A stretch of 62,080 nucleotides of DNA, filler included. It is 4 parts of 4 records of this genome, joined end to end, with 100 filler letters (N's around TTAATTAATTAA, not from the genome) between each part and the next. Parts side by side here need not be neighbours in the genome. Positions count along the whole stretch, not along the records: positions 21,057 to 37,468 come from SRR20825006_342; 3 more parts are not named here. One strand, given 5' to 3'. Numbering within the stretch: position 1 is the stretch's first letter; each line of letters begins with the position of its first letter. The translations under genes and the position numbers were made by a program. This document shows, in pieces, positions 21,058 to 36,618 of the stretch. The notes under the pieces are model-generated. The model saw only the letters and a program-made list of their open reading frames with translations, did no database searches and was not told the DNA's origin.

Positions 21058-21867
21058 GCACTTGTCGACAGCCACTGCCATCTGGACTATCCCCAGTTTT
21101 CCGAAGACCTTCCGGGCACAATTGAACGTGCCCGGAATGCTGGTGTCGGTATGATGGTTAGTATCGGCGTCAAGCTTTCGACTTTCGAAAATGTTCGCGC
21201 CGTCGCTGCCAAAGCTGACCACATTTACTGCACGGTAGGTGTCCACCCGCACGAGGCGGGCGAGGAGGGGCTTTCATCACCTGATCGCCTGATCGAAATG
21301 GCATCCGATCCGAAGATTATCGGTATCGGCGAAAGCGGCCTTGATTATTATTACGATCATGCCCCCCGCGAAGCACAGCGCCAAAGCTTTCGCGCCCATA
21401 TTGCCGCATGTCGCGAAACCGGTCTGCCATTGATTGTCCACACACGTGACGCAGACGACGACACGATGGATATCCTTGAAGAGGAATATGAAAAGGGGCC
21501 GTTTACTGGTGTCATTCATTGCTTTTCAAGTTCGGCGACACTGGCGCAACGTGCCTTGAAGATTGGTTTTTATATCTCGTGCTCCGGGATTATTACCTTC
21601 AATTCCGCAAAAGAAATCCAGGCAGCGGTCGCTGATGTTCCGCTTGACCGTTTGCTTGTGGAAACCGATGCGCCATATCTGGCACCAGTCCCGAAGCGCG
21701 GTAAACCAAACGAACCAAGCTATGTCGCACATACAGCGGCAAAACTTGCTCAGATCAAGGGCGTTGATGTTCATGAAATAGCCCGGATAACCAGCGATAA
21801 TTTCTTCACACTATTCAAGAAAGCTGATCGCAAGAATCTTCTGTCCCCGGAGGCGGGCGAACAGTGA
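21058..21867 (+). CDS. tatD: TatD-family hydrolase (5' end cut by gap)
   Basis: Frame extends upstream of the listed ORF to LVDSHCHLD; GVHPHE, GESGLDY, VETDAPYLAP. Confidence 0.93.
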   Translation, partial: ALVDSHCHLDYPQFSEDLPGTIERARNAGVGMMVSIGVKLSTFENVRAVAAKADHIYCTVGVHPHEAGEEGLSSPDRLIEMASDPKIIGIGESGLDYYYDHAPREAQRQSFRAHIAACRETGLPLIVHTRDADDDTMDILEEEYEKGPFTGVIHCFSSSATLAQRALKIGFYISCSGIITFNSAKEIQAAVADVPLDRLLVETDAPYLAPVPKRGKPNEPSYVAHTAAKLAQIKGVDVHEIARITSDNFFTLFKKADRKNLLSPEAGEQ

Positions 21868-22637
21868 CAAAAATCACCATTCTGGGCTGCGGATCATCAA
21901 ACGGTGTCCCATCCGTTGGCTTGGGATGGGGAAAATGCAATCCGAAAAATCCGAAAAACCGTCGTCTGAGAAGTTCAATCCTGATCGAGCAGGCAGGTAA
22001 AAAAATCCTTGTCGATGTGACACCGGATTTTCGTGAACAGGCATTGCGCCATGACATCAATCATGTTGATGCGGTGCTGTTCACACATGCACATGCTGAT
22101 CATGTCCATGGCATAGATGAGCTTCGCTGGATCAATGTCGCGATGCATCGACCGATCAATATTTACGCGTCTGCCGAAACCATCTCCGACATTGATCATC
22201 GTTTTGCCTATGTGTTTGAACCATTGGCCAACGGCACAGACTTTTATTACAAACCTGTGCTGATCCCGCATGTAATATCCGGGCCGTTTGAAGCGGCAGG
22301 GGTTCCGATAACCGTTTTCCTTCAGGATCACGGTTACGGTGAAACACTTGGCTTCAAAGTTGGGAAATTTGCCTATTCAACGGACGTGGTCAATTTCCCG
22401 GAAGAATCTCGAGAACATCTTTACGGGCTGGATGTCTGGGTTGTTGATTGCCTTCGTCATAAACCGCATGCGACGCACGCACATCTTGAAAAAGCGTTGC
22501 AGTGGGTTGAGGAATTCAAACCCAAACAAACTTACTTCACGCACATGAGCATTCTTTTTGATTACGATGAAGCAATGGCAGATACGCCGGATCATGTCGC
22601 GCCAGCGTATGATGGGCTGGTTATTGATCTGGATTGA
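21864..22637 (+). CDS. MBL-fold metallo-hydrolase (PhnP-like)
   Basis: ILGCGSSNGVP, THAHADHVHG, YFTHMS, AYDGL; usual neighbour of tatD. Confidence 0.92.
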   Translation: MTKITILGCGSSNGVPSVGLGWGKCNPKNPKNRRLRSSILIEQAGKKILVDVTPDFREQALRHDINHVDAVLFTHAHADHVHGIDELRWINVAMHRPINIYASAETISDIDHRFAYVFEPLANGTDFYYKPVLIPHVISGPFEAAGVPITVFLQDHGYGETLGFKVGKFAYSTDVVNFPEESREHLYGLDVWVVDCLRHKPHATHAHLEKALQWVEEFKPKQTYFTHMSILFDYDEAMADTPDHVAPAYDGLVIDLD

Positions 22638-22671: not shown

Positions 22672-22699
22672 AAGTTCTATAATATATATTAGCCGCAAA
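22672..22699 (-). other. dif-like XerC/XerD site, probable left prophage junction
   Basis: Minus strand TTTGCGGCTAA-TATATA-TTATAGAACTT: 11-6-11 layout with a XerD-like arm; lies between the last host gene and the first phage gene. Confidence 0.65.
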
Positions 22700-22785
22700 T
22701 CATGTGTTAATCCGTTGCTATCCTGTTCGCTACTCTAGGGTAGGGCGCAAAATCACGTAGGATATACACAAAGGTAGGATTGCGA

Positions 22786-23079
22786 TCAGGCCGCAATCCC
22801 GTCCATTGCTTTGTGAATATTGTCATGCATCTTAATATAATAAGTCTCGGCGTCCGTTCCTTTGGTGCGCCAGTAATTGAGGTCTAGTAAAGCCTCAAAT
22901 GGATCATTGCCGCCAAGCAAGGCTAACTTGATCATTATTTCATCACCGGGCAGGCCATGCCCGCGATGATAACGCGTCATGTTGATGCTATTGATGCCAA
23001 GTTCGCGGGCGACCGCATTGTTCGAATGCAGGTTTGAATGCCGTCTGGCGTCGTCAATGTAACCGCTGATTGATTTCAT
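22786..23079 (-). CDS. Prophage HTH repressor (resembles inovirus-type repressors)
   Basis: SNNAVARELGINSINMTRYHRG helix-turn-helix; divergent from the phage operon; GGAG RBS. Confidence 0.7.
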   Translation of the reverse strand: MKSISGYIDDARRHSNLHSNNAVARELGINSINMTRYHRGHGLPGDEIMIKLALLGGNDPFEALLDLNYWRTKGTDAETYYIKMHDNIHKAMDGIAA

Positions 23080-23128
23080 CGCTCATATCTCCGTTTCCCG
23101 CAAAGATTGTATCTCCAAAAAAACCCAT

Positions 23129-23188
23129 TTGACAACATACGGGGAGTTGTGGAGTTCTATTTGCAAGTTGCATAGTGATACTGTGCAA
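23129..23188. promoter_or_regulatory. Divergent promoter/operator region of the prophage
   Basis: TTGACA at 23129-23134; inverted repeat TTGCATAGT-GAT-ACTGTGCAA at 23168-23188. Confidence 0.45.
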
Positions 23189-23318
23189 TGTGCGATCCGT
23201 ACCCATAGGGGCACCCCGTTTCCCAAAGCTCGGTGCCCCGTCCGGTACAGAGGATCGCCGGACAAAGGGAAACGAAGATGACGCAATTAGAGCAAGATCA
23301 GGGCATTACGTCCGGGCC

Positions 23319-23528
23319 GTGCATATCCCCTTCAAAAAAAACCAGTTCGGCGCGTATGCGTTCTTTCCGGGCACTGGCCCAAAGGACAAGCGTTGCGCCG
23401 ACTGCATGTATTGCCGCGATCCCGAAAAGAAGCCGACCTGCAATATGGTTGCGGCCTTTCCGGGCCGGTACAAGTCGGGGCCGATAAAGTCGGGTTCGGC
23501 AAGCTGCAAGTATTTCCGGCAGCGATAG
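23319..23528 (+). CDS. Small Cys-rich (putative zinc-binding) phage protein; start uncertain
   Basis: FPGTGPKDKRCADCMYC..C..CKYF; in-frame GTG at 23319, or ATG 23278 via an A8 slip. Confidence 0.55.
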   Translation: MHIPFKKNQFGAYAFFPGTGPKDKRCADCMYCRDPEKKPTCNMVAAFPGRYKSGPIKSGSASCKYFRQR

Positions 23529-23703
23529 CAGTTTCGCCCGTGTGAGGCTGGGGAGCCAAAATTCACGGGGGTTTGGAAGGGGCTTCTGCCTCTCCACAAG
23601 TGGGGAAGGTGGTTTTTGTCAAAATTCTGCCTTCCCCTTCTAAACCTCAAGAAAACCCTCTGCGCGAAGCGCCAATTTCCACATTCCACGAGGATGACGA
23701 ACG

Positions 23704-24084
23704 ATGAACCAGCTTAAATTTTCCGATGATCGCAAGCATGCATCCGGGCAGTTCTCGACGCTGCATTTCGGCCTTGATATTGAAATTCATGCCATTGATG
23801 GCAATTGGGATAAAGGCAAGCCGCCAGTCGGCACCGGCAAAGAGCCGGGGCGTCCGGCCTATGATGTGTTCGGCGCTGGCCGGGGTGGCGCGGTCAAGCT
23901 GGGCGCGGCATGGCTCAAAACCATTCAGAACGGCCCGAACACAGGGAAGCAGTTCCTTACCATGTCACTTGATGATCCCAGCTTCCCATCAGCGTTGAAC
24001 CTGTCGGCGTTCGAAGGTGACGCGCCGGGTATCTATAATCTGAAATGGGAGCGCCCGCGTCAGGCGACCCAAGATGCCGCATAA
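23704..24084 (+). CDS. DUF736-family protein, putative ssDNA-binding
   Basis: GQFSTL..PAYDV..LGAAW..FLTMSLDDPSFP signature. Confidence 0.8.
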   Translation: MNQLKFSDDRKHASGQFSTLHFGLDIEIHAIDGNWDKGKPPVGTGKEPGRPAYDVFGAGRGGAVKLGAAWLKTIQNGPNTGKQFLTMSLDDPSFPSALNLSAFEGDAPGIYNLKWERPRQATQDAA

Positions 24085-24463
24085 GGGCAACGAGCAAGCC
24101 GGGGTTAACGCCCCGGCCTTTCGTATTCCAGACGGTTTTTCGCATGAGACAATGCCGATTTTTGGCGGTGCGTTCTCTCATGCGAAACACTGTTTCGTGG
24201 AATGGTCAGAAGATGGCGAGGAATACGCGGCTTTTCTGCCGACTGATCGCGCTTTCGACTGTCTGGCGGCATGTGAAGCCATGATGAAGGCTAAGAACCC
24301 GCCGATAGAGAGCGCGGAAATCTGGCCTATGTGCCGGTCTGTCACCAAAGGAAACCTTGACCGCCTTTGGAAGCAGGTGCGGCGGCTGCGTGAGCCGGGA
24401 AATCAGAAAACATGGTCAATCGAGTTTGCCCGGTTCGGGTATGGCGGAGGGTTTGAACGATAA
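24074..24463 (+). CDS. Phage hypothetical protein
   Basis: 129-aa ORF overlapping both neighbours. Confidence 0.5.
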   Translation: MPHKGNEQAGVNAPAFRIPDGFSHETMPIFGGAFSHAKHCFVEWSEDGEEYAAFLPTDRAFDCLAACEAMMKAKNPPIESAEIWPMCRSVTKGNLDRLWKQVRRLREPGNQKTWSIEFARFGYGGGFER

Positions 24464-24723
24464 TGGGTGGTTGTCTTTTTACAGGTCCGGCAGGAAGTCA
24501 AAACAGCGCGAAAATTGTTTACCCGTCCGCGTGGGTGCTTGTTGATATTGACTTGAAAACTGGCGATGTCGCCGGGGTTGTGGGGCCGTTTTTCTCTGAA
24601 TTTGAGGCGGATAATTTTGACCGGCAACGTGCTCAGGTGCGGTCCTTCCGTCGGACGCATAAGACGCGGATTTTTTCCGTGACATCACCATACGACGAAA
24701 TGCGGAAAGGATGCGAACGATGA
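24463..24723 (+). CDS. Phage hypothetical protein
   Basis: TAATG coupling to the upstream ORF, GGAGG RBS. Confidence 0.5.
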   Translation: MGGCLFTGPAGSQNSAKIVYPSAWVLVDIDLKTGDVAGVVGPFFSEFEADNFDRQRAQVRSFRRTHKTRIFSVTSPYDEMRKGCER

Positions 24724-24824
24724 GCGGCGTAACGATAATTGCCTTTTTCGTTGGTGTTGTGATCGGTGCGGCGGTTGTTGCTGCCGTGTTCGCGGGCATC
24801 ATTGATGGCTGGTTTAACAACTGA
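24720..24824 (+). CDS. 34-aa single-pass membrane protein (not in ORF track)
   Basis: MSGVTIIAFFVGVVIGAAVVAAVFAGIIDGWFNN*, ATGA overlap. Confidence 0.6.
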   Translation: MSGVTIIAFFVGVVIGAAVVAAVFAGIIDGWFNN

Positions 24825-24832
24825 GGTGAAAC

Positions 24833-25093
24833 ATGGGTAACGGAATGGATGCACTGAGCCGGGAAGAACGCGAAGAAATGCGCGGTAATCGCTTTCCTGA
24901 ATGTTGGTGCGTAATGGTTTCTCGGTCCAAAACCAGTTGGGGCTGGGGTGTTGTCGTTGTTTACGGGCCGGTTGCGCGGCAAGGCGCAGAGGCGCTTGAA
25001 AAGGTTTTGACTGGCGCGGGATTTTTGGCAGAAGCGGTCAAGATGTCAGGGCACACCGTTGATATTGCCGATTTGAGGAAACTGGTTGATTGA
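24833..25093 (+). CDS. Phage hypothetical protein
   Basis: GAGGTG RBS, 86 aa, in operon. Confidence 0.55.
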   Translation: MGNGMDALSREEREEMRGNRFPECWCVMVSRSKTSWGWGVVVVYGPVARQGAEALEKVLTGAGFLAEAVKMSGHTVDIADLRKLVD

Positions 25094-25098
25094 CGGGC

Positions 25099-25129
25099 GA
25101 AGGGGGCATTTTTGTATCACGCCCCCTTC
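25099..25129. other. Candidate rolling-circle double-strand origin hairpin
   Basis: Perfect 9-bp stem GAAGGGGGC/GCCCCCTTC with a 13-nt AT-rich loop, about 20 bp before the Rep start. Confidence 0.55.
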
Positions 25130-25148
25130 TGATTACAGGGTAGGGAAA

Positions 25149-26357
25149 ATGGATTTAATCTACGCAGGGTTTGACGGTCTTGATGTGACGTTTCAGGGAG
25201 TCATCCCGCTTCGGGCGGTTGATGCTTTCGAAGCGGCCAAGGTGGCAGCACAGGAAACCAAACAGGAAACCTTTGCACAGGTCGGCAAATTCAAGGGTCA
25301 TGTTGCCGAAACCGGGGCGCGTGGCGGCTATACGTATCGGGTTGATACCGGCAATCTTGGCTTTACGTGGTTCTTTTCCAAATCCCAGAAGCGCGAAGGC
25401 TGGAATATCCGGGTTTCCTGCAAGTCGGCAACCCTTGCGACATACGGCTTTGAGGGGGCCATAGGGCTTATGTATGCCGATCTTGAGGCCGTGGGGGCGA
25501 CGGTCCTGCAAGAGGCCATTGCAAGGGTCGATTTCGCGATGGATTGGCGCATGCCCGGTGATTTCCGGCTTGATCCGCACCGCTTCGCGCTCCATGGGAC
25601 AACCAAGGCCGACATGCACGGCGAGGAAATCGGGCAGCACTGGCAGAAACGTCAATGCACCGGCTTGACAATCGGTAAAATGCCGGGGCGGCAAATCTGC
25701 ATCTATGACAAGCGCCGCGATATCGTCGCCAAACGCAAAGACGAATGGTGGAAAATCTGGGGGATTGACCGGGACGAATTTGAGAGGTCCGGGGATCAGA
25801 TGTGGCGCATCGAATTGCGGGCCGGAAAGAAGCATTTAAAGGAACAATGGGGCGTTACGTCATGGGCCGATCTTCGCGCCAAATTGGGCGATATCTATGC
25901 GCATGCGCTCCTACGTATACGTTACAAGGCCCGGACATGGGATGAAGACGAAAATATCACCCGCATTGAGGACGATCATATGTGGGAACGCTGCCGGGCT
26001 GTAACGGGTGGAAGCCTGTTTGAGTACACGAGCAATTGCGGGCCGGGTGTCGTCAAACAGGTCATGCAGGAACAACAGCGCCAGACCATCGCCGCGATGA
26101 TGATCGGCTTGTCAGCAAACCTTGCAGTTCTGTCCGGGGTGGACAAAGACCAGCTATGGGAATTGCCGCCCCTGATTTCAAAAATGATTGCCAGCAACAT
26201 CCACGGGGAGGAAAGCGGAAAAGAGTTCAAATCGAAAATGAAGAAGGTCTATCGCCGATATGAAATCTATGACGAAGATGGAGTGATCCTAGATGAAAGA
26301 ACGATTGGACAAATTGGTGGCGGCACAGGAAGCTGCACAGAAAGCGCCTTTGTTTAA
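25149..26357 (+). CDS. Rolling-circle replication initiator, Rep_trans family
   Basis: GFDGLDVT, ARVDFAMD, TIGK..ICIYDK (catalytic Tyr candidate), WRIELR; AGGGA RBS before ATG 25149. Confidence 0.85.
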   Translation: MDLIYAGFDGLDVTFQGVIPLRAVDAFEAAKVAAQETKQETFAQVGKFKGHVAETGARGGYTYRVDTGNLGFTWFFSKSQKREGWNIRVSCKSATLATYGFEGAIGLMYADLEAVGATVLQEAIARVDFAMDWRMPGDFRLDPHRFALHGTTKADMHGEEIGQHWQKRQCTGLTIGKMPGRQICIYDKRRDIVAKRKDEWWKIWGIDRDEFERSGDQMWRIELRAGKKHLKEQWGVTSWADLRAKLGDIYAHALLRIRYKARTWDEDENITRIEDDHMWERCRAVTGGSLFEYTSNCGPGVVKQVMQEQQRQTIAAMMIGLSANLAVLSGVDKDQLWELPPLISKMIASNIHGEESGKEFKSKMKKVYRRYEIYDEDGVILDERTIGQIGGGTGSCTESAFV

Positions 26358-26454
26358 CAAGGCCCATCTGATCGACAAAGCATTAGTCGAATTGGGCGGG
26401 CTGTTGAACGAAATGGTCGAGCGGATCGAGCGGCTGGAAAATGGCAACCGTTGA
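26293..26454 (+). CDS. 53-aa coiled-coil protein (not in ORF track)
   Basis: MKERLDKLVAAQEAAQKAPLFNKAHLIDKALVELGGLLNEMVERIERLENGNR*, GGAG RBS, overlaps the Rep end. Confidence 0.6.
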   Translation: MKERLDKLVAAQEAAQKAPLFNKAHLIDKALVELGGLLNEMVERIERLENGNR

Positions 26455-26812
26455 TCCGGGCACTGTGATTGAAGTTCGCGCTTGTTCAGGGTGTGGGAAC
26501 CCGGTCTACGTCAAGGCGAACAAAAATCAGATTGCATATTACTTTTGCACACCTAACGACGACAACAACGGTCAAGGGTGTTCGCATCATGAAAAATGGG
26601 GACGGGTCGCATCAAACCAGAAATTGAGGGCGTATTGGGAAGCCAGACGCGCCCACGAGCGTAAGGGGGTTGATGATGACCGAAAAGACCGATTGGCTAC
26701 CGGGAGCCAGCCAGACGAAGCCGAAAGCCGGGCCGACGAAAGCCAGCCTGAACCAGTCCACGAGCCTCAACGGGCCATCCTCGCCGGATTTGCCGAATAC
26801 ATCCGATCATGA
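26441..26812 (+). CDS. Zinc-ribbon protein, possible transcription activator (PM2 P14-like position)
   Basis: CSGC..YFC..GCSH; directly after the Rep module. Confidence 0.55.
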   Translation: MATVDPGTVIEVRACSGCGNPVYVKANKNQIAYYFCTPNDDNNGQGCSHHEKWGRVASNQKLRAYWEARRAHERKGVDDDRKDRLATGSQPDEAESRADESQPEPVHEPQRAILAGFAEYIRS

Positions 26813-27317
26813 CGATATTGATGCGGGTGCTGAACATCTGGCGTCGTTCACGGTTGATCCGCTAGAAGGCGAGGCCGACGAATTTGGCGGGCTGGATGGC
26901 CTGTCAAATCTGGCCGATGACAGCGGCGAATTTATCAGTTCGGACGTGTTCTTTTCGTCCTTCTGTACCGCCTTCCAGATCGGCGCATGTGTGCCGCCAT
27001 ATCTGACCAGCCTCAAGATTGATGACAGCGAAATGGATCAGGCGCGCGCCGCGTCCGATGCGCTGTATGATATCTGTCTTGATACACCTTCCATGCATTT
27101 CCTTGTTAAGCCCGGTGGTGTGTGGTTTCAGCGCGTTGCCGCGATTTCGGCCTTTGCCTTGCCTAAGGCAATGGGGGTTGTTTCGGAAATCAAGGCGAAG
27201 AAGGCAAGGCCGGTCAATCAATCCCCTGGACAAGATAAAAAAGCCGAAAGGGCCAAGCCGGAACCAGCCAAAGAACCGCCTGCAAATGGTGGTCAATATG
27301 ACTGGGCTCCGACGTAA
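26673..27317 (+). CDS. Acidic protein preceding the packaging ATPase
   Basis: Acidic N-terminus, hydrophobic C-terminal helix, TAATG coupling to the ATPase. Confidence 0.6.
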   Translation: MMTEKTDWLPGASQTKPKAGPTKASLNQSTSLNGPSSPDLPNTSDHDDIDAGAEHLASFTVDPLEGEADEFGGLDGLSNLADDSGEFISSDVFFSSFCTAFQIGACVPPYLTSLKIDDSEMDQARAASDALYDICLDTPSMHFLVKPGGVWFQRVAAISAFALPKAMGVVSEIKAKKARPVNQSPGQDKKAERAKPEPAKEPPANGGQYDWAPT

Positions 27318-27958
27318 TGGCGGCGTTTTCAGAAGCGGGCCGGATTGGCATCTGGGGTCGATCCGGGTCCGGCAAATCGACGCGGGCAAAGCGTTTGATT
27401 GCGAAACGAAAGCGGGCCGTTGTCTTTGATCCTCAGGACGAATACCAGCACGAGCGCGGCTTTTTCCGGGTAACAACGATTGATCAGGTCCGGGCCTATA
27501 TGGCGCGAAACTGGCGGCGCAATTTCCGGGTGGCTTATGTGCCGCCAGCCGGGCAGGAAATGGCCGCGCTTGATCGGCTATCAAAGTTGTTGAAAGTCGC
27601 CCAACGGCCATTTTTCGACGGGCACGACGAACGGCAAATCTGTTTGCTGGTCGAGGAAATGAACGAATGTTTCCCCGTGACAGGGATACCACGCGCATTC
27701 GGTGGGTTTGGTGATCTCTGTTCGCGGGGGCGGCATTCGGGGATTGAATTGATCGGCGTTTCACAGCGAATTGCAGAAGTCAATACCCGGTTTCGAGGTA
27801 ATTGCACCGAAACTTATGTTTTCCGGCAAAAAGGGCCGCGTGATCTTAAGGCGGCAAGTGACGAGTTGGGCGGCGTGTCAACCGCAGAAATCCAAGCGTT
27901 ACAGCCGCACCATTACATTCACGAGAAAAACGGGACCATTACCAAAGGGAAAAACTGA
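27317..27958 (+). CDS. Genome packaging ATPase (FtsK-HerA/A32-like; PM2 P9-like)
   Basis: Walker A GRSGSGKS, Walker B LLVEE, arginine finger RGRHSGI followed by SQR..V..RGNC. Confidence 0.88.
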   Translation: MAAFSEAGRIGIWGRSGSGKSTRAKRLIAKRKRAVVFDPQDEYQHERGFFRVTTIDQVRAYMARNWRRNFRVAYVPPAGQEMAALDRLSKLLKVAQRPFFDGHDERQICLLVEEMNECFPVTGIPRAFGGFGDLCSRGRHSGIELIGVSQRIAEVNTRFRGNCTETYVFRQKGPRDLKAASDELGGVSTAEIQALQPHHYIHEKNGTITKGKN

Positions 27959-28028
27959 AAAATCGTGAATTTTCCTACGTAAGGTAATGTAACGTTACCT
28001 AGATTTGCCGCCCCCGAAATTGCGGCGT

Positions 28029-28061
28029 AACCCGGTTGTCAGACAGGCGACCGGGTTTTTT
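28029..28061 (+). terminator. Intrinsic terminator-like hairpin between ATPase and structural genes
   Basis: AACCCGGTTGTC-AGACA-GGCGACCGGGTT followed by a T-tract. Confidence 0.6.
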
Positions 28062-28098
28062 GTTTCCCCGGCTGTCACACAGGAAAAAGGGGTTTTCC

Positions 28099-28188
28099 GT
28101 GAGTGCAAAGAGTTTTGCAGTGGGCGTTGCTACCGCGCTGGTCGCGACGGTCATTTATGACAAATTCATCAAGCCGAACATGGCTTAG
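28099..28188 (+). CDS. 29-aa putative virion membrane protein (not in ORF track)
   Basis: MSAKSFAVGVATALVATVIYDKFIKPNMA*, AAGGGG RBS. Confidence 0.6.
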   Translation: MSAKSFAVGVATALVATVIYDKFIKPNMA

Positions 28189-28197
28189 GGGGTCAAT

Positions 28198-28320
28198 TTG
28201 AAGGGTGATATCAAAACGGTCGTTCTGACCGCGTTGGGCGTCATGGTTGCCGGTTACGTCATGAACATGATGTACGACGTGGCGATTGTGAAACAGGCCT
28301 CTGACGGCTTCGATAAGTAA
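28198..28320 (+). CDS. 40-aa putative virion membrane protein (not in ORF track)
   Basis: MKGDIKTVVLTALGVMVAGYVMNMMYDVAIVKQASDGFDK*, AGGGGG RBS; directly before the MCP, as for PM2 P7. Confidence 0.6.
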   Translation: MKGDIKTVVLTALGVMVAGYVMNMMYDVAIVKQASDGFDK

Positions 28321-28332
28321 GGGGGCGGCGCG

Positions 28333-29151
28333 TTGACCAATCGCATTTCCAAAAAAATGCCGAACGGCTCCGGTATCGGTGCGGGACAAACCGCAACGTT
28401 CAACCTGCCGAACGGCGTAACCTATCATCAGCTTTTGTTCCGCATTCAGGCCGATCTGGGCGCGGGCGTGGTTGATGTGCCGAAAGCCAGCCTTGGCACC
28501 GTGCTTGGTGAAATCCGGCTCTATATCGACGGGCAGGAAACCATTCGCATTGACGCTGCCGATCTGGCGGCAATTCTGACCTACAAGGGCCAGACAGTTA
28601 AGGACGGGGCGTTGCCGCTCATGTTCTCTGATCCGGCACAGCGCACCCCGATGGGTGAAGATGCGCCGGCTATCGGCACCGCCGATATTCAGTCACTTTC
28701 CCTTGAGGTTGATATCAAGGCAGGTGTTACGTCGCCGTCACTGGTCGTTTATGGCCTGCTGGGTCCAAACACACCGCTTGGTCAGTTCTACGCGATCAAG
28801 AAATATCCGTTCAACGTCGGTAATACCGGCATCCGCGAATTGCAGGATTTGCCGCGCTCTGACTATCACATCACGAAAATGCATATCAGCACGGATGATA
28901 TTGATAGCGTTCAGGTCGAGGCAAACCAGCGAATTTTGCGTGACTTTGACCGGGTTGTTGGTGCGGCGGCGGCAATTCAGACCGGCAAGGTCTGGCAGAC
29001 CGGCTGGACGCACATTGATTTCACGATCAGTGATCGTCTTTCCGACTTCCTGCCGATGCTGCTTGAAGATTTCCGGGTGCGTCTGGATATGACCGCTACA
29101 GGCAACTTCAACCTGTATACCGAGGAAATTCGCGGGCGCGTTGCCGCCTGA
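28333..29151 (+). CDS. Double jelly-roll major capsid protein (PM2 P2-like)
   Basis: 272 aa, beta-rich; AGQTATFNLPNGVTY, IGT..SLEVDI, ELQDLPRSDYHITKMHI and IDF..EDFRVRLD are colinear with PM2 P2 motifs as recalled. Confidence 0.88.
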   Translation: MTNRISKKMPNGSGIGAGQTATFNLPNGVTYHQLLFRIQADLGAGVVDVPKASLGTVLGEIRLYIDGQETIRIDAADLAAILTYKGQTVKDGALPLMFSDPAQRTPMGEDAPAIGTADIQSLSLEVDIKAGVTSPSLVVYGLLGPNTPLGQFYAIKKYPFNVGNTGIRELQDLPRSDYHITKMHISTDDIDSVQVEANQRILRDFDRVVGAAAAIQTGKVWQTGWTHIDFTISDRLSDFLPMLLEDFRVRLDMTATGNFNLYTEEIRGRVAA

Positions 29152-29206
29152 CAGGTGGATGTAAACCGGGGCGCTAGCGCGTCCCGGCTGGCCTTAAGGG
29201 GGTAAT

Positions 29207-29497
29207 ATGGCTGAAACGACGCAAAGTGCCGGTGGGCTGGAAATTCTTGACAGTATTTTTGGGTATCTGAACAAAACCAAGAATGCCGTTTTTGAAACCT
29301 ATTCCCAATGGCAAGCGACCTTTGGCAGCGAGAACGCCATGGATGGCGGGGGGGATTATGCAACGGGTGAAAATGCCGGTAGCTGGTCAAACCCAAATCC
29401 GTCACCGCCTGCAAGTGGCTCGGCAAATACCGGGCTCTATATCGGTGTCGGTGTGGCTTTGCTGGCCGGAATGATCGTTCTCACGCGCAAAAAATAG
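29207..29497 (+). CDS. Virion membrane protein (PM2 P3-like position)
   Basis: C-terminal TM GLYIGVGVALLAGMIVL followed by RKK; first gene after the MCP. Confidence 0.65.
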   Translation: MAETTQSAGGLEILDSIFGYLNKTKNAVFETYSQWQATFGSENAMDGGGDYATGENAGSWSNPNPSPPASGSANTGLYIGVGVALLAGMIVLTRKK

Positions 29498-29506
29498 GGG
29501 GCGCAT

Positions 29507-29752
29507 ATGTTTCCTGCGCTTTCTGGTCTTACCGGAATGATGGGCGGCGGGGGTGGCGGCGGTAGCTGGCTGGAAACGTCCAGCGAAGCAACTGCCATGT
29601 CCAACGCCCGCGCAACATCCGGGCAGATTTACAGCTACAACACTGCGCCGTTTATCGTCGGAGGTGACGATGACAACGCGGTTTCAATGATCAAGATGGC
29701 CGTTCCGTTTGTGGCCGCTGGGGTGATGGCATGGCTGGTATTGAAACGGTGA
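29507..29752 (+). CDS. Gly/Ser-rich virion membrane protein (PM2 P8-like)
   Basis: MFPALSGLTGMMGGGG..SSEAT.. with C-terminal TM and KR. Confidence 0.65.
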   Translation: MFPALSGLTGMMGGGGGGGSWLETSSEATAMSNARATSGQIYSYNTAPFIVGGDDDNAVSMIKMAVPFVAAGVMAWLVLKR

Positions 29753-30147
29753 CGTTGGGGGTTGTGGCGTGGGATGACACGGCGGCGGAACATTTCCGCC
29801 CCGTTGTCCTGCCAGACAGCCCAACCGGCCTTGAGGGGCTGCAAAACGACGTGGAAGCGGGGGCGGCTTCTGTGCTGGCCGTTATGGCCGATGGGGAGCG
29901 TATCGGGTCGGTTTTGGTCCGGCTTCTGGCGGGCGGGGATGGTCTGCATTTCGTGATTGAATGCGCCAATGCCGATCTGCCGGGGTTTGATCTGGTCGAA
30001 ACCTGCATGCCCGCCCTTGAGGGCTGGGCCGCAAAACTCGGATGTGTCGCGGTCGATGTACCAACGCATCGTCCCGGATTGGTTTTCAAGATGAAACGGC
30101 GCGATTACCAAGTGGTTCAAACCGTGATGCGAAAGGCGATTGCATGA
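29731..30147 (+). CDS. Hypothetical protein, possible GNAT-like fold
   Basis: DGERIGSVLV..ALEGWAAKLGCVAVDV..RPGL pattern. Confidence 0.5.
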   Translation: MAGIETVTLGVVAWDDTAAEHFRPVVLPDSPTGLEGLQNDVEAGAASVLAVMADGERIGSVLVRLLAGGDGLHFVIECANADLPGFDLVETCMPALEGWAAKLGCVAVDVPTHRPGLVFKMKRRDYQVVQTVMRKAIA

Positions 30148-30518
30148 GTTCCGCACTAAGCAATTCCAGTAGCAAAAGTAGCAGCACAACGACCAGCAAC
30201 AACTATGACCAGCGGGCAGGGGCCGAAGATGGTTCTATCGCGGTTTCGGGTGGTGGACAGGTCAATATCGACGCGACCACGCCAGAGGCTTGGGATTTTG
30301 CCGCCGATGTGAATGCAGACGCGCTTGATCTAGCGGCTATCACGGTCGGATCGGCCTTTAGCGCACTGGAAAAGTCCAATCAGACGGTTGGCACCGCACT
30401 TACGGAATTGCGCAAGGCGAATACGTCTGACACCGCAAACACGCTGGAAATGTTGATCAAGATCGGCGTTCCGGTGCTTGGCGCGGCCTTCATCCTTCCA
30501 GCGATCTTTAAGAAATAG
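30144..30518 (+). CDS. Ser/Thr-rich virion membrane protein
   Basis: ATGA-coupled start MSSALSNSSSKSSSTTTSNN; C-terminal TM and KK. Confidence 0.65.
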   Translation: MSSALSNSSSKSSSTTTSNNYDQRAGAEDGSIAVSGGGQVNIDATTPEAWDFAADVNADALDLAAITVGSAFSALEKSNQTVGTALTELRKANTSDTANTLEMLIKIGVPVLGAAFILPAIFKK

Positions 30519-30525
30519 GGGCAGC

Positions 30526-31233
30526 ATGGCCGATAGTTCATTTTTCCAAAGCTACAAAGGATCGGTTCAGCCGGGGGATTTGTTCACGATCCATCGCCGG
30601 GGCCGCTCCGTTGCCATGGTTGCTGCGTCCGATGATCTGGAAATCGTGATCAATGACGGGTCGCGTTCCCGGTTCTTTGCCGGTGCGTCCCTGAGCTTTG
30701 ATGTCGAGTTCGAGAAAATCCAGATTTTCAACCCGAACGCAACGGCGGCGACCTTCGAACTATGGACCGCCATGGGCCGGGTTGATGACAACCGCCTGAC
30801 CGCTTCGGGCGATCTGAATGTGATTGATCCGAACACGGGGGACAGCTTCGCCAACGTGATCGCCAAGAATGCCGAAATTCTGGCGATGATGCAGAGCGAC
30901 ACGGATCAAGGGCACCCGGTAAAGGTGTTAGGGGAGAATGCTGCAACGGCAGGTTTTATAGCGTCCTCTGTGGAAATCATAAGCCCATTGCTAAACACAA
31001 ACGGGGTGATTGTTCGTCATGCTTCGATTTTGACAGCGGCGTCTTATGCTGCTGGGCTTTTTTATGGGGCGTCTGCACCGGGAAGCATGGTTTCAAATCA
31101 TGCGTTAATACGAAGTTCGAACGCTGTGCCGGTCCATGATGGTCAGTTTTTGTTGTCTGCCGGTTTGGGGCTGTGGGCGTTATCCACTGTTGTGAATGGA
31201 TATTACACCGTTAGCTGGGATTATTTGCCATGA
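30526..31233 (+). CDS. Putative penton/spike receptor-binding protein
   Basis: Beta-rich N-terminal domain ending FEKIQIFNP..GRVDDNR, then a linker and a second beta-rich domain; AGGGG RBS. Confidence 0.6.
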   Translation: MADSSFFQSYKGSVQPGDLFTIHRRGRSVAMVAASDDLEIVINDGSRSRFFAGASLSFDVEFEKIQIFNPNATAATFELWTAMGRVDDNRLTASGDLNVIDPNTGDSFANVIAKNAEILAMMQSDTDQGHPVKVLGENAATAGFIASSVEIISPLLNTNGVIVRHASILTAASYAAGLFYGASAPGSMVSNHALIRSSNAVPVHDGQFLLSAGLGLWALSTVVNGYYTVSWDYLP

Positions 31234-31454
31234 GTGATATGGAAGTTTTAAGCCTTGCCTATCAGCGTCAGGCGCAGGGAGACACTCGTGATCTATCGGT
31301 TATCATAGCGGATATCCGGGCAGATCTTGCCACCATGCAATCGCCCGCGCCGGGGCCAACGGATGAAATCGGTTTCAAGTCCGAAGTGATCAAGGGTGTT
31401 CGCACTGAATACAAGATCATGGGTGATGGCTCTATGGTCGAGGTGACGTCATGA
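31230..31454 (+). CDS. Phage hypothetical protein
   Basis: ATGA overlaps at both ends. Confidence 0.55.
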   Translation: MSDMEVLSLAYQRQAQGDTRDLSVIIADIRADLATMQSPAPGPTDEIGFKSEVIKGVRTEYKIMGDGSMVEVTS

Positions 31455-31954
31455 TGAAAGATGCACTCCTTCTGGTCGGGGCTGGTGGGCTTGCTTTTGC
31501 AGCGTTTCAGGTTGCCAAGGGCAAATCGGTCACAACGATCGATCTGACCAATGCCGGACAAATCAGTCAGGAAGTCGACACCATCGCCCGGACGATCTGG
31601 GGCGAGGCGCGGGGCGAGGGTGAACGCGGCATGCATGCCGTTGCCAACGTCATTATGAACCGTGCGCGGGTTGGCGGATGGTGGGGCAATAGCCCGGTGG
31701 AAGTCTGCCTGAAGCCTGCTCAGTTCTCCGCTTGGAACCGCAATGATCCGAATTTTGACCTTGCCCGCAAGGTGACTACGCAGGACCCGCAGTTCCGTCT
31801 GGCCTTGCAGATTGCTGGCAGGGCGATTGCGGGCACCCTGGACGATATCACCGGGGGTGCAACGCACTATTTCAATCCGAATGTGGTCTTGCCGTCTTGG
31901 GCCAGTGCGCTAACGCGCCTTACCGATATCGGCAACCATCGCTTTTACGTTTAG
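31451..31954 (+). CDS. Cell wall hydrolase (SleB/Hydrolase_2) with N-terminal TM
   Basis: ARTIWGEARGE, AVANVIMNR, QFSAWN, GATHYFNP, IGNHRFY. Confidence 0.9.
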   Translation: MMKDALLLVGAGGLAFAAFQVAKGKSVTTIDLTNAGQISQEVDTIARTIWGEARGEGERGMHAVANVIMNRARVGGWWGNSPVEVCLKPAQFSAWNRNDPNFDLARKVTTQDPQFRLALQIAGRAIAGTLDDITGGATHYFNPNVVLPSWASALTRLTDIGNHRFYV

Positions 31955-31961
31955 GTGACGC

Positions 31962-32240
31962 ATGGCGACCTTCGAACCGCATTACGATAGCGCATTGCAT
32001 TCCGTGGAATACATGGACGGGCGCTGGATGACGTGCGGTGTGCTGGATCAGCATGCATGCATGAATTTGGCGCTTGATGCGGCGACAATTGAAGGTGAAG
32101 GCGATCCGGTGGGCGATCCGTTCGAAGATGATACCGGGTTGGTAATTGGTATGCCCCTTGAATACGAAACGATTGATTGGGGCGTGATTGCGCTCATGTG
32201 CGGCGCGGTGCTGTTCATGGCGGCTTTGGAAAGGGGGTAA
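31962..32240 (+). CDS. Acidic protein with C-terminal TM
   Basis: AGGTG RBS; WGVIALMCGAVLFMAAL. Confidence 0.55.
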   Translation: MATFEPHYDSALHSVEYMDGRWMTCGVLDQHACMNLALDAATIEGEGDPVGDPFEDDTGLVIGMPLEYETIDWGVIALMCGAVLFMAALERG

Positions 32241-32296
32241 TCGTGCGTCTGGGCTTGCGATTGCAGATGATCAACAAACAGGAGGGTGATGACGAC

Positions 32297-32389
32297 ATGG
32301 CAAAAGGTAAAAAAGCCAATGGTCGGCTGAAAAAGGGCTATCGCTACGCCAAGGGCGGGCGCGTGGTCAAAGCGAAAGGCCGTAAGTAA
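32297..32389 (+). CDS. 30-aa highly basic protein, putative DNA-binding
   Basis: MAKGKKANGRLKKGYRYAKGGRVVKAKGRK*; GGAGG upstream; TAATG coupling to the next gene. Confidence 0.65.
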   Translation: MAKGKKANGRLKKGYRYAKGGRVVKAKGRK

Positions 32390-32538
32390 TGCCGTTGCCG
32401 CTGATTTATTTTGGCGTCGGCGTGCTGTTTGGCGGCGGGGGCGTCTGGCTTGCCGGGGATGCTGCCAAAAAGGTCGGCAATGCCGCCCTGATCGTCGGCG
32501 GCGTCTATCTCGGCGGCAAATACCTGAAAGCGTGGTGA
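32389..32538 (+). CDS. 49-aa membrane protein with two hydrophobic segments (not in ORF track)
   Basis: MPLPLIYFGVGVLFGGGGVWLAGDAAKKVGNAALIVGGVYLGGKYLKAW*. Confidence 0.6.
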   Translation: MPLPLIYFGVGVLFGGGGVWLAGDAAKKVGNAALIVGGVYLGGKYLKAW

Positions 32539-32609
32539 ATGGCTGATATCACGCTATGGCAGGTTCTATCCGGGGGCGGCGATCTGGCGACAATCGGTTT
32601 TCTGTACTT
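32539..32609 (+). pseudogene. Small hydrophobic phage ORF interrupted by the transposon end
   Basis: MADITLWQVLSGGGDLATIGFLY then runs into the GAGGGTCGGC repeat. Confidence 0.5.
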
Positions 32610-32656
32610 GAGGGTCGGCAACGATTCTGACGCAATCCTCCAAAATTTGCCTTAAC
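32610..32656. repeat. Terminal inverted repeat of Tn3-family element (TnXax1-like GAGGG end); inner limit approximate
   Basis: GAGGGTCGGCAACGATTC.. just downstream of the tnpA stop. Confidence 0.75.
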
Positions 32657-32665
32657 CTATTGTAT

Positions 32666-35638
32666 TTAAATTATTTTGGCGTTGTAGCTCATGGGTGAAA
32701 CCTGCCGATCAAAATCAAGCGTATAATCGCCAAATCGGTTGATATGGTCCGTGCGGTATGGGGCCAGCCCTTTGAGAATATCGTGATCAATATGATGACC
32801 GCGCTCTTTGAGATCTTTAAGGGTTAACGTCATCGACTCCACATTGTGAAGAATGACCAGGTTGGCCACCAAGTGGTTATATTTGATCACCTTCCGTTGC
32901 TCGTGACGGATATTCTCGGCGATCACCCCCTCGCCGCCGAAGAACAGCCATTTCACGAACTGGTTGAACTCTTCCGTTTTGTTCGTCTCCGCATGAATGG
33001 TTCGCCGCAACTCCACGCTGCCAATGTAGTCCAGAAGAAAGGTTGTCCGAACGACCCTCCCCAGTTCCCGGAAAGCAAAGTAGAGTTTGTTCTTGAGGCT
33101 TGCGGTACCTAAACGTCGCAGTACCGTAGACGGTGCGATTTTTCCAGCCTTAATCGATAGCGCCACCCGGAGCATGTCCGGCACATGGGTTTCAATCAGT
33201 TTCCAGTTGATAGTCTCGCTGAACAAAGCATTGATGTGCTCATACCGTTGGCGTTTGTCAGACTTGTAGAACACCAGCTGCTTCAGATTCCGGATGCGGG
33301 GCATCAGGTTGATACCCAGCAGGTAAGCCAACCCGAAGACGGGCGCACTTTGCGCCTGAGTATCGCCATGCAAGGTGTCAGGCTGGATATCGGAGTCGTT
33401 TTTGATCAGTCCATCAAGGATGTAAATGGCCTCATAAACGCCGCAAGGAATGAAGTGGCTGAACAGCGCGATGTATTTGTCCGAGACGTGGTAGTAGCCC
33501 ACCCCGCCATAGCCACCGTACCGTATGTGGTATTCCGATAGCAGATTCTGTTCGTACAGGTTCCATTTTGTGCCATCGGCGGCGGCCCGCTGGCCAGTTC
33601 CCCAGTGTCGCGGCAGCCGGTAGCGGTTGTAGGCATTGATAACCTGTACAATCGCCTGCTCCAGGCGCTCTTCGGTGACGTGCCGCAGGTTGAGCCAGGA
33701 CACCTGCCGGCGATTAAGCGTCGTGATGGATCGCGCGGTCTGAGTTGGCCCGAGATTGCAGCCATAGCAAAATAAGGTCGAAACAAAGCGGGTACGGGGG
33801 TCGTCCAGCTTGCCCTCAAATCCGGAAAGTGGCCCAAAGCGTTTGTGGAGGCCCAGCCATTTTTCGGCTTCCACCAGGATGTCGAGAATGTTCTTTTCGG
33901 GCATATTTTGGGATAACTGCTTATCAATCTCAGCTAACCCATCCGGAGGCGCTCTACGGCGGTGCTTCCGGATCACCAGATCTTCACCATGGAAGACGGC
34001 GTATTCATTCTCCGGGAAGCCACGGTCAATGCGGTCGGCCGTTTCGCTCAACCGGGAGTGGGCTTGTACCACAAAAGCGGCTGGGTCGGATTCGATATCA
34101 ATCATCGCACTGTAGTCCGCTATCTGGGCATCATAGACACTCCAATCCACCAGCTGATCGCGGTAGTCACTGTACTGGTCGCTATTCGCGACCGCGAGAT
34201 CGCCGGAAATCAGTTCACGCTTCACCTGTGTCAGTACGCCCAGCTCGAAATACTTCCGGTAGACCATCCCGGGGGGCAGCTGGCTTGGCCCGGTCCCCAA
34301 TACCAAACGGCGCCAACGCTCCGGTAGCCAGGACACGTCGACGGGTTGACTACTGAGGACAAGGCATTCCTTACGGCTGTGCCGGTGCTTTTTCAGAGTC
34401 GCAATCGCCTCAATCAAAGATTGATCGTGGCTGGTTGCCGCCAGATCCAGTAGTTCAAGGCAATTGAATAACAGGGGGCGTAACGGGCGGTAGGGTTGCA
34501 GCATGAACGGGATGAAGTTATTGCCAGCATAGGCCATGTGTTCCTCACACTCTGCCAGTAATTCATCAGGATCGCTCTGGATGGCAGCCGCCACTCGGGC
34601 ACCTCGCTCGGAGTCCGTTGGCGCTTCCTGGACGGCGGTCAGTACGTCACGCAGTTGAGCCACCAGCCTGTCCATGCGTTTCATGTGATCCAGGTGATAC
34701 TGGTTCAGGTTGGCTTCTGCCTTGGTTTTGATGTTGCGCATCTTGCGAACAAAGATGTCGACCGCATCGTCCATCGCGCGACGCAATTGGGCATGGACCA
34801 GCAGAACCATCAAAGCGTAGCGTTTGGTGCTTTGCATGGCCTTGATGTTGGCCGCGCCCAGCGCTCGTGCTTCCAGTATGAAGTGGTGATATTTGGCGGC
34901 GGGAATGTGATCAACAGCGGGCAATTGTTGACACCAACCCTGAAGCCATTCCAGGTGCTGAAGATACTTCTTCACTTCCGTATTGGTCGGCTTTTTGGGT
35001 TCCTGTTTCAACTTATGCCAACTGGTATGAGGGGAATCATCCGGCACTTGCAGCAACTGGTCAAATTCGTTTTTTTGATGCGCTGTCAAACCCACATTGA
35101 GCGTCCGAAAGTAACCGGTATTGACCGTGCTGCGAGCCTGACGCGCGGTCCGTTGCAACGTTGAAAAACCCGGTAACTCAAAACGCTGGCGCACCAGCTC
35201 TTCAATCACCACATTGATGATGTCCGCCAGGTCCTGCTTGGTGGTGGCCGCTTCACGCGCTAGTTCCCGTACAATTGCCTTGCCTTCAACGGTGAACGCC
35301 TTGATGCCCACCTGTTGACGAACCGTCTCCAGCATCCGCTGACGGGCGCCGCCATTGCGGTCGTAGACCCTGAGCTGGCTCAATGCGAGATGTGAAAGGT
35401 CGTCGCACGCCAGAATGTGCGTTGTAATGGATTGGGGAACGGCTTTGAGATGGACAAAGTAGCCCAGACGCTGCACTGTTTTCAGGAGAATGAGTAGGGC
35501 GCCACGAGCAGCCGGAGTTCGACCGTGCTTTCGGGCAAAGGATCGTTCCTGGGTAGAGGGTGTATAAATTTCTGCCAGTTCTTGATCCGAGACCACCGCC
35601 TTCAATCGCGGATAGGCGGTTTCATGGAGGCTACTCAT
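32666..35638 (-). CDS. tnpA: Tn3-family transposase
   Basis: HETAYPRL, AADGT, HGDTQAQ, ELGRVVRT, NKTEEFN, HINRFGDY. Confidence 0.96.
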   Translation of the reverse strand: MSSLHETAYPRLKAVVSDQELAEIYTPSTQERSFARKHGRTPAARGALLILLKTVQRLGYFVHLKAVPQSITTHILACDDLSHLALSQLRVYDRNGGARQRMLETVRQQVGIKAFTVEGKAIVRELAREAATTKQDLADIINVVIEELVRQRFELPGFSTLQRTARQARSTVNTGYFRTLNVGLTAHQKNEFDQLLQVPDDSPHTSWHKLKQEPKKPTNTEVKKYLQHLEWLQGWCQQLPAVDHIPAAKYHHFILEARALGAANIKAMQSTKRYALMVLLVHAQLRRAMDDAVDIFVRKMRNIKTKAEANLNQYHLDHMKRMDRLVAQLRDVLTAVQEAPTDSERGARVAAAIQSDPDELLAECEEHMAYAGNNFIPFMLQPYRPLRPLLFNCLELLDLAATSHDQSLIEAIATLKKHRHSRKECLVLSSQPVDVSWLPERWRRLVLGTGPSQLPPGMVYRKYFELGVLTQVKRELISGDLAVANSDQYSDYRDQLVDWSVYDAQIADYSAMIDIESDPAAFVVQAHSRLSETADRIDRGFPENEYAVFHGEDLVIRKHRRRAPPDGLAEIDKQLSQNMPEKNILDILVEAEKWLGLHKRFGPLSGFEGKLDDPRTRFVSTLFCYGCNLGPTQTARSITTLNRRQVSWLNLRHVTEERLEQAIVQVINAYNRYRLPRHWGTGQRAAADGTKWNLYEQNLLSEYHIRYGGYGGVGYYHVSDKYIALFSHFIPCGVYEAIYILDGLIKNDSDIQPDTLHGDTQAQSAPVFGLAYLLGINLMPRIRNLKQLVFYKSDKRQRYEHINALFSETINWKLIETHVPDMLRVALSIKAGKIAPSTVLRRLGTASLKNKLYFAFRELGRVVRTTFLLDYIGSVELRRTIHAETNKTEEFNQFVKWLFFGGEGVIAENIRHEQRKVIKYNHLVANLVILHNVESMTLTLKDLKERGHHIDHDILKGLAPYRTDHINRFGDYTLDFDRQVSPMSYNAKII

Positions 35639-35863
35639 ACGCAGTTCTTCGCTATGGGGTTCCAGTGAAAGGCATTAGCCCACAGTACTTTCGCTCTTGA
35701 GGGGGGCATTGCTTATAGTAGGCAGCAATTCGTCAAGACCAAAGGAACCGCCCGTTATTTTGTGAACGCCACGCTCGCTTTACGTTACGGGATTATTCGG
35801 TCATCGATCGCCGGTTCCCCGATTTATTGAATCGTTACACCACACCGCAGACTGATTCGAGCT

Positions 35864-36170
35864 ATGGCCATTGAGCATCTTTCCCCCCCCACTGATCATT
35901 CACACCTACCAACGCCTTTCTAGTGCCCAGCTAATCGCTCTGGCAGGGACCGGGCTAACGACGGTGGCGCTGGCGCCGCTGGCCCATGACTGACGGGCGG
36001 CAGTGCGGGCCAGGTGCTCGGCATTGCGCTGGCCCTGAAGATGATTGCCTACGCCCTAATAGCACCTCTGTTTGGGGCTGTTGCCCAAAAACTTCCCCGC
36101 CGTACTCTGCTGGTCACACTGGACATTCTGAGGGCCTGCGGGGTTGCCCTTTGTCACTGAGGTTTGGCAG
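35864..36170 (+). pseudogene. Frameshifted 5' fragment of NreB-like MFS (nickel resistance) transporter
   Basis: Across frameshifts: [56 protein letters not shown]. Confidence 0.7.
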
Positions 36171-36618
36171 GGGGCCCACTCTGGCTAGGGTAGGTACAAA
36201 ATTTTCGCCCAACCCCTTCATGTAATGACGCAATTAAGGGGCACGAGATATTGCCCTCTTGGGCGCAGCACCGATCAACCATGGCGCTCAGTAAAACCTC
36301 AATTTGCTGTAGCTTTTCGATCTTCCCACGTACGTCGTGCAACTTGCGCTCCGCGAGAGTGCTGGCTTCCTGGCAGTGGGTGCCGTCTTCGAGTCGGAGC
36401 AGGTCGCTGACCTCATCGAGACTGAAGCCTAACTGCTGCGATGTTTTCACAAAGCTCAACCTGCCGATATCGCTGGGACCGTAGCGTCGAATACCCCCGA
36501 GAGGACGCTGGGGCTCAGGTATTAACCCACGTCGCTGGTAGTAGCGGATGGTCTCAACTGAGACGTTCGCCGCCTTAGCCAGCCCCCCGATGGTCAATGA
36601 GTTCATTTCATCCGGCAT
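36154..36618 (-). CDS. merR: Hg(II)-responsive regulator MerR
   Basis: [32 protein letters not shown] (three Hg-binding Cys). Confidence 0.93.

Follow-up and report, generated by a model that had tools for sequence, protein, structure and literature searches.

The analyzed stretch of DNA (62,080 nucleotides in full, referred to below as the window) is composed of four contigs joined by N44-TTAATTAATTAA-N44 linkers at 20957-21056, 37469-37568, and 50183-50282, so its parts need not adjoin in the genome. The site described here is located on the contig at 21057-37468 (Table 1). This contig begins inside the host gene tatD: the linker ends at 21056, and the homology of all 23 compared Thalassospira loci to the window begins at 21057-21061. 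The gene that follows encodes an MBL-fold hydrolase with 97% protein identity to that of Thalassospira sp. MCCC 1A03138. We also noticed that the contig at 37569-50182 has a G + C content of 58-65% over most of its length, vs 48-57% for most of the remaining window, and carries genes for an SLT/TPR protein and a BrkB-family protein as well as a tRNA-Glu (43230-43302); it may be an island or a mis-binned contig.

Downstream of the hydrolase gene lies the 28-mer at 22672-22699, with the plus strand AAGTTCTATAATATATATTAGCCGCAAA and the reverse complement TTTGCGGCTAA-TATATA-TTATAGAACTT. The latter is identical to the minus-strand 28-mer singled out by an earlier sequence-only reading of this DNA, which had also placed the site correctly at 35 bp after the host stop codon: the TGA occupies 22635-22637, a gap of 34 nt follows, and the 35th base is the first of the site. 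Even with up to 3 mismatches allowed, the 28-mer has no second copy in the window, and 100 shuffles gave no match; its resemblance to dif is not by chance. No tRNA gene was found at the junction, and the first phage gene begins 87 nt past the 28-mer.

TABLE 1 Features of the locus and of related elements, with positions along the window unless a locus is named
Feature	Position	Strand	Evidence
Host tatD, 5′ end cut by contig start/linker	21057..21867	+	Pfam TatD_DNase 1.8e-76, profile positions 31-253 only
Host MBL-fold hydrolase gene (257 aa), conserved left neighbor of dif	21864..22637	+	Pfam Lactamase_B_2 1.9e-35
XerD-type arm of dif, host-derived, TTATAGAACTT on minus strand	22672..22682	-	Same as native arm in L001, L002, L003, L008, L018
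6-bp central region TATATA, strand-exchange zone	22683..22688	.	Same in native dif of relatives and in reciprocal site of same genome
XerC-type arm: inner TTA (22689-22691) common to dif; outer 8 nt (22692-22699, GCCGCAAA) degenerate, phage-derived	22689..22699	-	Homology of L001/L018 ends at 22691; native arm TTATGACAAAT
Main part (9.9 kb) of PM2/corticovirus-like (Vinavirales-type) prophage	22692..32609	+	Gene content; collinear with elements in three other family genomes
97-aa HTH regulator adjoining att site	22786..23079	-	PHROG 638 transcriptional regulator 2.4e-10
423-aa protein, where replication genes sit; no recognizable recombinase	25086..26357	+	86-88% identical in G014 and G022 elements
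Packaging ATPase, P9-like, FtsK/HerA type	27317..27958	+	Pfam DUF87 9.1e-06; PHROG 2666 6.6e-24
Double-jelly-roll major capsid protein, PM2 P2-like	28333..29151	+	Pfam P2_N 4.3e-20, P2_C 6.2e-21; PHROG 8536
Endolysin (cell-wall hydrolase)	31451..31954	+	Pfam Hydrolase_2 2.4e-22; PHROG 938
First 4.9 kb of 13.8-kb Tn3-family transposon: tnpA 32666-35638, merR 36154-36618, ISL3 fragment	32610..37468	-	Pfam; plasmid similarity
~187-aa protein, weak C-terminal HTH, beside far att site of three relatives	L069 14360-14923; L041 10031-10588; L068 5289-5729	minus in L069	HTH_23, 0.00091

The DNA beyond the 28-mer belongs to a prophage of ~10.8 kb in total, made up of the 9.9 kb listed in Table 1 and a tail of 0.89 kb. 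A P2 double-jelly-roll capsid protein, with both the P2_N and P2_C matches above the Pfam cut-offs, together with a P9-type ATPase in a ~10-kb genome identifies it as PM2-like; with the capsid proteins of Vibrio tailless phages, the identity is 24-28%. The genes from 22786 onward also include one for a DUF736 protein and small membrane-protein-sized ORFs. The 97-aa HTH protein, which takes the same position as gp1 of phage Jorvik and has a weak RstR-family match (0.0028, below the cut-off), is likely the lysis-lysogeny regulator. The 423-aa protein has no match in Pfam, PHROGs, NCBIfam, or the PDB sequence search, and no integrase, resolvase, or transposase domain was detected in 21 ORFs of the window (Pfam E ≤ 0.001; PHROGs). 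In IMG/VR no relative was found, either by a scan with the capsid protein or by the 25-mer of the phage-side junction.

The prophage is interrupted at 32610, and the sequence from there to the contig end matches a Marinobacter salarius plasmid at 98.1% identity. The protein-level phage homology of the relatives, their tails included, reaches the window only up to this position, and the second inverted repeat of the transposon, an inverted copy of 32610-32645, is found 13.8 kb further on in a 79-kb public contig. The 13.8-kb Tn3-family transposon landed in the prophage after integration, and the prophage carrying it can probably no longer be packaged. In one metagenome run the tnpA region has many variant letters and a higher depth, and other copies of the transposon are therefore probably present there.

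Native dif of Thalassospira and the replication terminus

A search with the hydrolase protein gave 33 loci, the closest from Thalassospira, and 23 Thalassospira loci were compared. In prophage-free relatives the native dif, AAGTTCTATAA-TATATA-TTATGACAAAT, occupies the same place after the same MBL-hydrolase gene. A full dif (up to 2 changes allowed) lies within about 100 nt after the gene in 11 of the 23 loci, and it is this native site that the first 20 nt of the 28-mer reproduce; elsewhere dif is 3.8 kb off (one locus), inverted (one locus), or without a full site within the covered DNA (10 loci). A similar site is found directly 3′ of the orthologous MBL gene in SAR116 loci. The core pattern TCTATAA-N6-TTATGACAAA (up to 1 mismatch) is present in all 37 family genomes, 32 of which have a single copy and five have two or three, while its reversed control gave one match in total in the same set. 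Both the Thalassospira dif sequence and its conserved place after tatD and the MBL gene, SAR116 loci included, are useful for annotation.

The sequence-only reading had proposed to check whether this locus is at the GC-skew terminus and at KOPS convergence, and both coincide with the orthologous dif of T. australica ABH-489. On this complete chromosome (4,548,855 bp), sampled in twenty windows of 20 kb, dif is located at about 2,088,166, within the 60-kb gap where the sampled GC skew switches from positive (9 of 10 sampled windows at 0-2.06 Mb, the other being −0.002) to negative (10 of 10 at 2.12-4.32 Mb). KOPS (GGGNAGGG) shows plus-to-minus counts of 25:3 left of dif and 3:36 right of it, and GGGCAGGG is the most strand-skewed octamer in the sample, with 53 leading vs 3 lagging occurrences. 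Because the skew switch and the KOPS convergence both occur there, the native site is the terminus dif. An XerD above the curated cut-off and an XerC-best paralogue are encoded in each of five relatives' genomes (5/5), far from the elements described below.

Some irregularities around dif were also observed. Extra copies of the XerD arm directly precede dif in L008 (AAGTTCTATCAT-AAGTTCTATAA…) and L009 (TAGTTCTATAA-TAGTTCTATAA…), at about 10820-10870 in both loci; these partial or full copies may be scars of earlier Xer events. In L006, L012, and L015, immediately 3′ of the MBL gene, the sequence breaks off within the XerD arm or at its edge and ordinary transporter and metabolic genes follow; on the complete T. 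lucentensis chromosome (entry G002:C1:1612494-1612519) dif is 101 kb from the MBL gene and inverted relative to it. Such an arrangement suggests an inversion with one end at dif. Other mobile elements 3′ of the MBL gene were considered and set aside, as ordinary metabolic and transporter genes are carried both by the L016 insert, located between the MBL gene and dif, and by the DNA after the break in L015. Second dif-like sites with a host-type XerC arm and the spacers TATATC or TCTATG/TCTATC are present at G004:C1:294012, G015:C89:88658, G023:C183:20182, G033:C2:260551, G005:C133:729, G022:C4:240960, and G018:C67:224507; each may be a second replicon's dif or a junction of some other element that exploits Xer.

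The two ends of the element

The blastn homology to the closest relative (MCCC 1A03138, 94.6% DNA identity) ends at 22691, and the two furthest-aligning relatives (L001 and L018) both lose homology at the same position. When aligned to prophage-free relatives, the site has the XerD arm, the spacer, and the TTA in common with them and differs in the outer XerC arm (8 nt). This is the arrangement that had been predicted from the letters, with a conserved XerD-like arm on the host side and a divergent XerC-like arm on the phage side. A dif-like site at the host/prophage junction was likewise well recognized: the break in synteny falls at 22691, within the 28-mer and not outside it, and the phage genes lie beyond.

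A reciprocal dif-like partner was not found within the window, because at 32610 the prophage gives way to the 13.8-kb transposon, within which the contig ends. Candidates at 32645 on the minus strand (9 mismatches; within the inverted repeat of the transposon) and at 14485 on the minus strand (9 mismatches), as well as the 11-mer TTATGACAAAT at 28156 in phage DNA, were rejected as having no dif structure or the wrong orientation, and the direct and inverted repeats in 22000-44000 are only short chance pairs and N-linkers.

The far junction was located in public assemblies, where in all four runs compared (4/4) a contig matches 22671-22691 and then continues into TGACAAAT and its flank. The continuation past 22691 (TGACAAATTAAACGTTATCTG…) corresponds to the host XerC arm followed by DNA resembling the L001 flank after dif. 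A 79-kb contig from an isolate run covers this locus in full, including the inverted copy of 32610-32645 and the 21-nt site copy. By its coordinates, the transposon measures 13,836 bp and is followed by 888 bp of phage tail and then a perfect dif, the tail and the far site being known from these coordinates and from a 30-nt loose-end consensus. The overall order is the MBL gene, the hybrid site, 9.9 kb of phage, 13.8 kb of transposon, 0.89 kb of phage, dif, and host DNA. The reciprocal site that had been expected at the far prophage end is thus a perfect dif with the orthologous host flank in the same genome, and the element is flanked by two direct dif-like sites, the hybrid at 22672-22699 and the perfect dif beyond the phage tail. 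The run of the 79-kb contig may be the source of the window; it confirms the structure and adds no independent lysogen, and the four runs compared are for the same reason not all independent.

The host-phage junction is present in full in 18 public runs of 9 studies, 14 of these runs being possibly the source of the window. One contig from a metagenome matches 22274-32692 (10,419 bp) at 100% identity and stops inside the transposon end, without a far end. A small depth bump at 22153-22700, which could be read as coming from an empty site, fits the 21-nt copy at the far junction instead. The runs with the junction (queried with 22300-23300) include isolate-sized sets, marine, sediment, and subsurface metagenomes, and runs labeled with four other organisms; the lysogen is either widespread or a frequent companion or contaminant.

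Related elements and their attachment sites

The capsid protein finds relatives in 3 of the 37 family genomes (G005, G014, and G022), all collinear with the element in the window, and their junctions are on contigs of 0.9-2.0 Mb from independent genomes. Written as XerD arm, spacer, and XerC arm, the G005 element is bounded by AAGTTCTATAA-TATATA-TTACTGTATAG on the left and AGGTTCTATAA-TATATA-TTATGACAAAT on the right, and the G014 element by AAACTCTATAA-TAAAGA-AACTGTCTAAT and AGGTTCTATAA-TAAAGA-TTATGACAAAT, the latter being the sole dif-type site of its genome. The G022 element has a perfect dif on the left and GTATTCAATGG-TATATA-TTATGACAAAT on the right, and its phage genes run the other way. 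For the G005 and G022 elements, the DNA on either side shows synteny with that bordering dif on its two sides in empty genomes. Within each genome the central regions of the two junctions are identical, TATATA in the window's genome, G005, and G022, and the unusual TAAAGA in G014.

Assuming simple site-specific recombination, attP of the G005 and G014 phages would have a canonical XerD arm and a degenerate XerC arm, a design that the left junction in the window fits, and for attP of the G022 phage the reverse would hold, with the XerC arm canonical and the XerD arm degenerate. In all of them, the arm turned toward the HTH regulator gene is the degenerate one. The complete G014 element was scanned at a relaxed threshold, and none of its 20 ORFs gave a recombinase domain of the tyrosine, serine, DDE, or HUH type (Pfam E ≤ 1).

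Route of integration and comparison with known systems

Very probably, the 28-mer is the left junction of a ~10.8-kb circular, integrase-less, tailless, membrane-type PM2/corticovirus-like phage that recombined into the chromosomal dif of a marine Thalassospira. The element has the features of an integrative mobile element that exploits Xer (IMEX), being inserted at the chromosome dif between two direct dif-like sites and with no element-encoded integrase detected, and integration by host XerCD is the best reading of its sequence. The phage attP would be a dif mimic, with a canonical XerD arm, a central region identical to that of the host, and a degenerate XerC arm in which the inner TTA alone is retained. 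Brought together with dif by host XerC and XerD, this attP would recombine through strand exchange at the edges of the central region, leaving beside the MBL gene a hybrid of host XerD arm, spacer, and phage XerC arm, and at the far end a perfect dif of phage XerD arm, spacer, and host XerC arm. Since one of the two resulting sites is degenerate but the other is a good dif, chromosome-dimer resolution would be preserved. We infer Xer catalysis and the order of strand exchange, the dependence on Xer being suggested by the anatomy of the sites and by the absence of a recognizable phage recombinase. The sequence-only reading had taken the site for the hybrid left by XerC-mediated integration; a hybrid site of an Xer-exploiting element is what we also find, but the mediation by XerC does not follow, as identical central regions fit either order of exchange or a complete two-step exchange.

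In CTX/VGJ-type elements, partial central-region homology, with non-homology on the XerD side, stops the reaction after the XerC exchange, and CTXphi uses a folded ssDNA attP. A comparable route, with exchange of a single strand pair by XerC alone and a Holliday junction that is resolved by replication, would give end products of the same arm composition as those seen here (host XerD with phage XerC, and the reverse), yet we regard it as rather unlikely for this element. The central regions are identical at 6 of 6 positions at both junctions in the window's genome, G005, G014, and G022; even the different spacer TAAAGA of G014 is present at both junctions, the right one being the only dif-type site of that genome, and for a dsDNA phage a folded ssDNA attP would not be expected. 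Because the central regions are fully identical, a complete two-step exchange is favored over an XerC-only exchange resolved by replication. On the other side, the attachment sites of XerC-first IMEX tolerate degenerate arm positions (PMC9226527).

Integration by XerCD has to be weighed further against a phage-borne recombinase that escaped recognition, or a protein retargeting another enzyme, for which dif would merely be attB. Many phage ORFs are without a family, several of the proteins concerned (the 423-aa protein and the ~187-aa HTH protein) could be a novel recombinase or cofactor, the latter is the neighbor of the far att site in each of the three relatives that are complete or nearly so, and Vibrio tailless prophages at dif regularly carry integrases; these points also count against the XerCD reading. 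Nevertheless, attP copies dif arm by arm, including the host-matched spacer, as a substrate of Xer must and that of a foreign integrase need not, and together with the scan of the 20 G014-element ORFs this makes a dedicated recombinase very improbable. That there is no junction at all, the 28-mer being the strain's own mutated dif or a chance palindrome with phage genes adjacent by coincidence or misassembly, can practically be dismissed. The contig does come from a draft assembly stitched with linkers, but homology breaks at 22691, a perfect dif with host flank lies at the other end of the element, and the same join recurs in the metagenome contig, in the 79-kb isolate contig, and in the public runs counted above, possible sources of the window among them; moreover, independent genomes have the same architecture.

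Integration at dif is already proposed for related phages (Jorvik and NO16), and the element in the window is a further case. Rhodobacter phage Jorvik (OP588643) has no integrase and has a dif-like attP and attB, and in the consulted part of its description integration by XerCD is proposed on the evidence that both sites resemble dif motifs, with Jorvik-like prophages said to be abundant in Alphaproteobacteria (PMC10589892). It is likewise a small circular dsDNA, membrane-containing, tailless phage of an alphaproteobacterial host without an integrase (PMC10589892, same part). Its annotated attP, TCCGATAATCAGTATT, is placed with the lysis end on one side and the HTH regulator gene on the other, a layout as found here, and one arm of it looks canonical and the arm adjoining the HTH gene degenerate. 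However, the tblastn identity is 25% over 204 aa for the ATPase and 29% over 89 aa for a part of the capsid protein, the Jorvik replicase has no match here, and Jorvik has 8.8 kb vs about 10.8 kb here and a different replication gene; by comparison of capsid, ATPase, and replicase, the element in the window would fall outside the Jorvik-like group. The Jorvik attB is described inside the cbbII operon and attB location is called variable (PMC10589892, same part), whereas attB here is the terminus dif.

NO16 (‘Asemoviridae’) and the tailless Vibrio prophages at dif are also ~10-kb double-jelly-roll tailless temperate phages with dif-like sites, and the use of XerCD is suggested from genomics (PMC9966536, PMC11630473), but their hosts are gammaproteobacteria and their capsid identity to the present phage is 24-28%, as given above. 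The dif-targeting tailless prophages of V. cyclitrophicus often carry integrases, and the authors left the mechanism open (PMC9966536, PMC11630473); none is detectable in the element of the window. In site design, the TLCphi type of IMEX in V. cholerae is similar, with a central region fully homologous to dif, one degenerate attP arm, and a prophage flanked by an attP-like site and a functional dif (PMC9226527, PMC6744903). The G022 sister element shares with it a degenerate XerD arm, whereas in the window's element the degenerate arm is that of XerC and the XerD arm is canonical. TLCphi is also a filamentous satellite and not a capsid-encoding dsDNA phage, and no DUF3653/XafT-like protein was found at Pfam E ≤ 1 among the 20 scanned ORFs of the G014 element. 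By analogy with the TLCphi type, the full identity of the central regions would allow complete exchange.

Elements of the CTXphi/VGJphi type (XerC-first; in part PMC4246890) resemble the present one in having no integrase, using dif, and leaving hybrid flanking sites, but they have partial central-region homology and the central regions here are identical, which sets this element outside that type. With PM2 and the corticoviral prophages it shares the P2-type capsid, the P9-type ATPase, the ~10-kb genome, and aquatic hosts (PMC1950889, in part). It differs from the elements of that 2007 survey in that several of those have integrases or transposase fragments, and the part of the survey available describes no dif junctions and mentions XerC/D use only as a possibility, by the example of CTXphi (PMC1950889). 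Among the papers listed by a literature search, judged by titles and the beginnings of abstracts, none dealt with dif prophages of Thalassospira. What is added by the present case is a dif located at the terminus, both junctions defined, and sister phages with apparently mirror-image attP sites. Nature offers here a clean example in which a dsDNA phage with its own capsid gene sits at an alphaproteobacterial dimer-resolution site, and the empty sites of relatives serve as controls.

In the relatives, the ~187-aa HTH protein encoded next to the far att site is 89% identical between G014 and G005, both of the XerD-arm design, and only 25% identical to the G022 version; its Atlas scores reach only 0.82 and give HTH-type leads at most. 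One tentative and rather doubtful idea raised by the mirror-image sister phages is that attP and the adjoining HTH gene form an exchangeable module, with the HTH protein acting as a Xer activation or directionality factor. If so, the protein would be analogous in role to XafT and unrelated to it in sequence, and Xer could use sites with either arm degenerate. The opposite degenerate arms, together with the host-matched unusual spacer, offer a comparative set for asking which Xer protein starts the reaction and whether a phage factor replaces FtsK. The possible crossover zone comprises the inner 7 nt of the XerD arm and the spacer in G014, and extends from position 3 of the XerD arm through the inner TTA of the XerC arm in G005.
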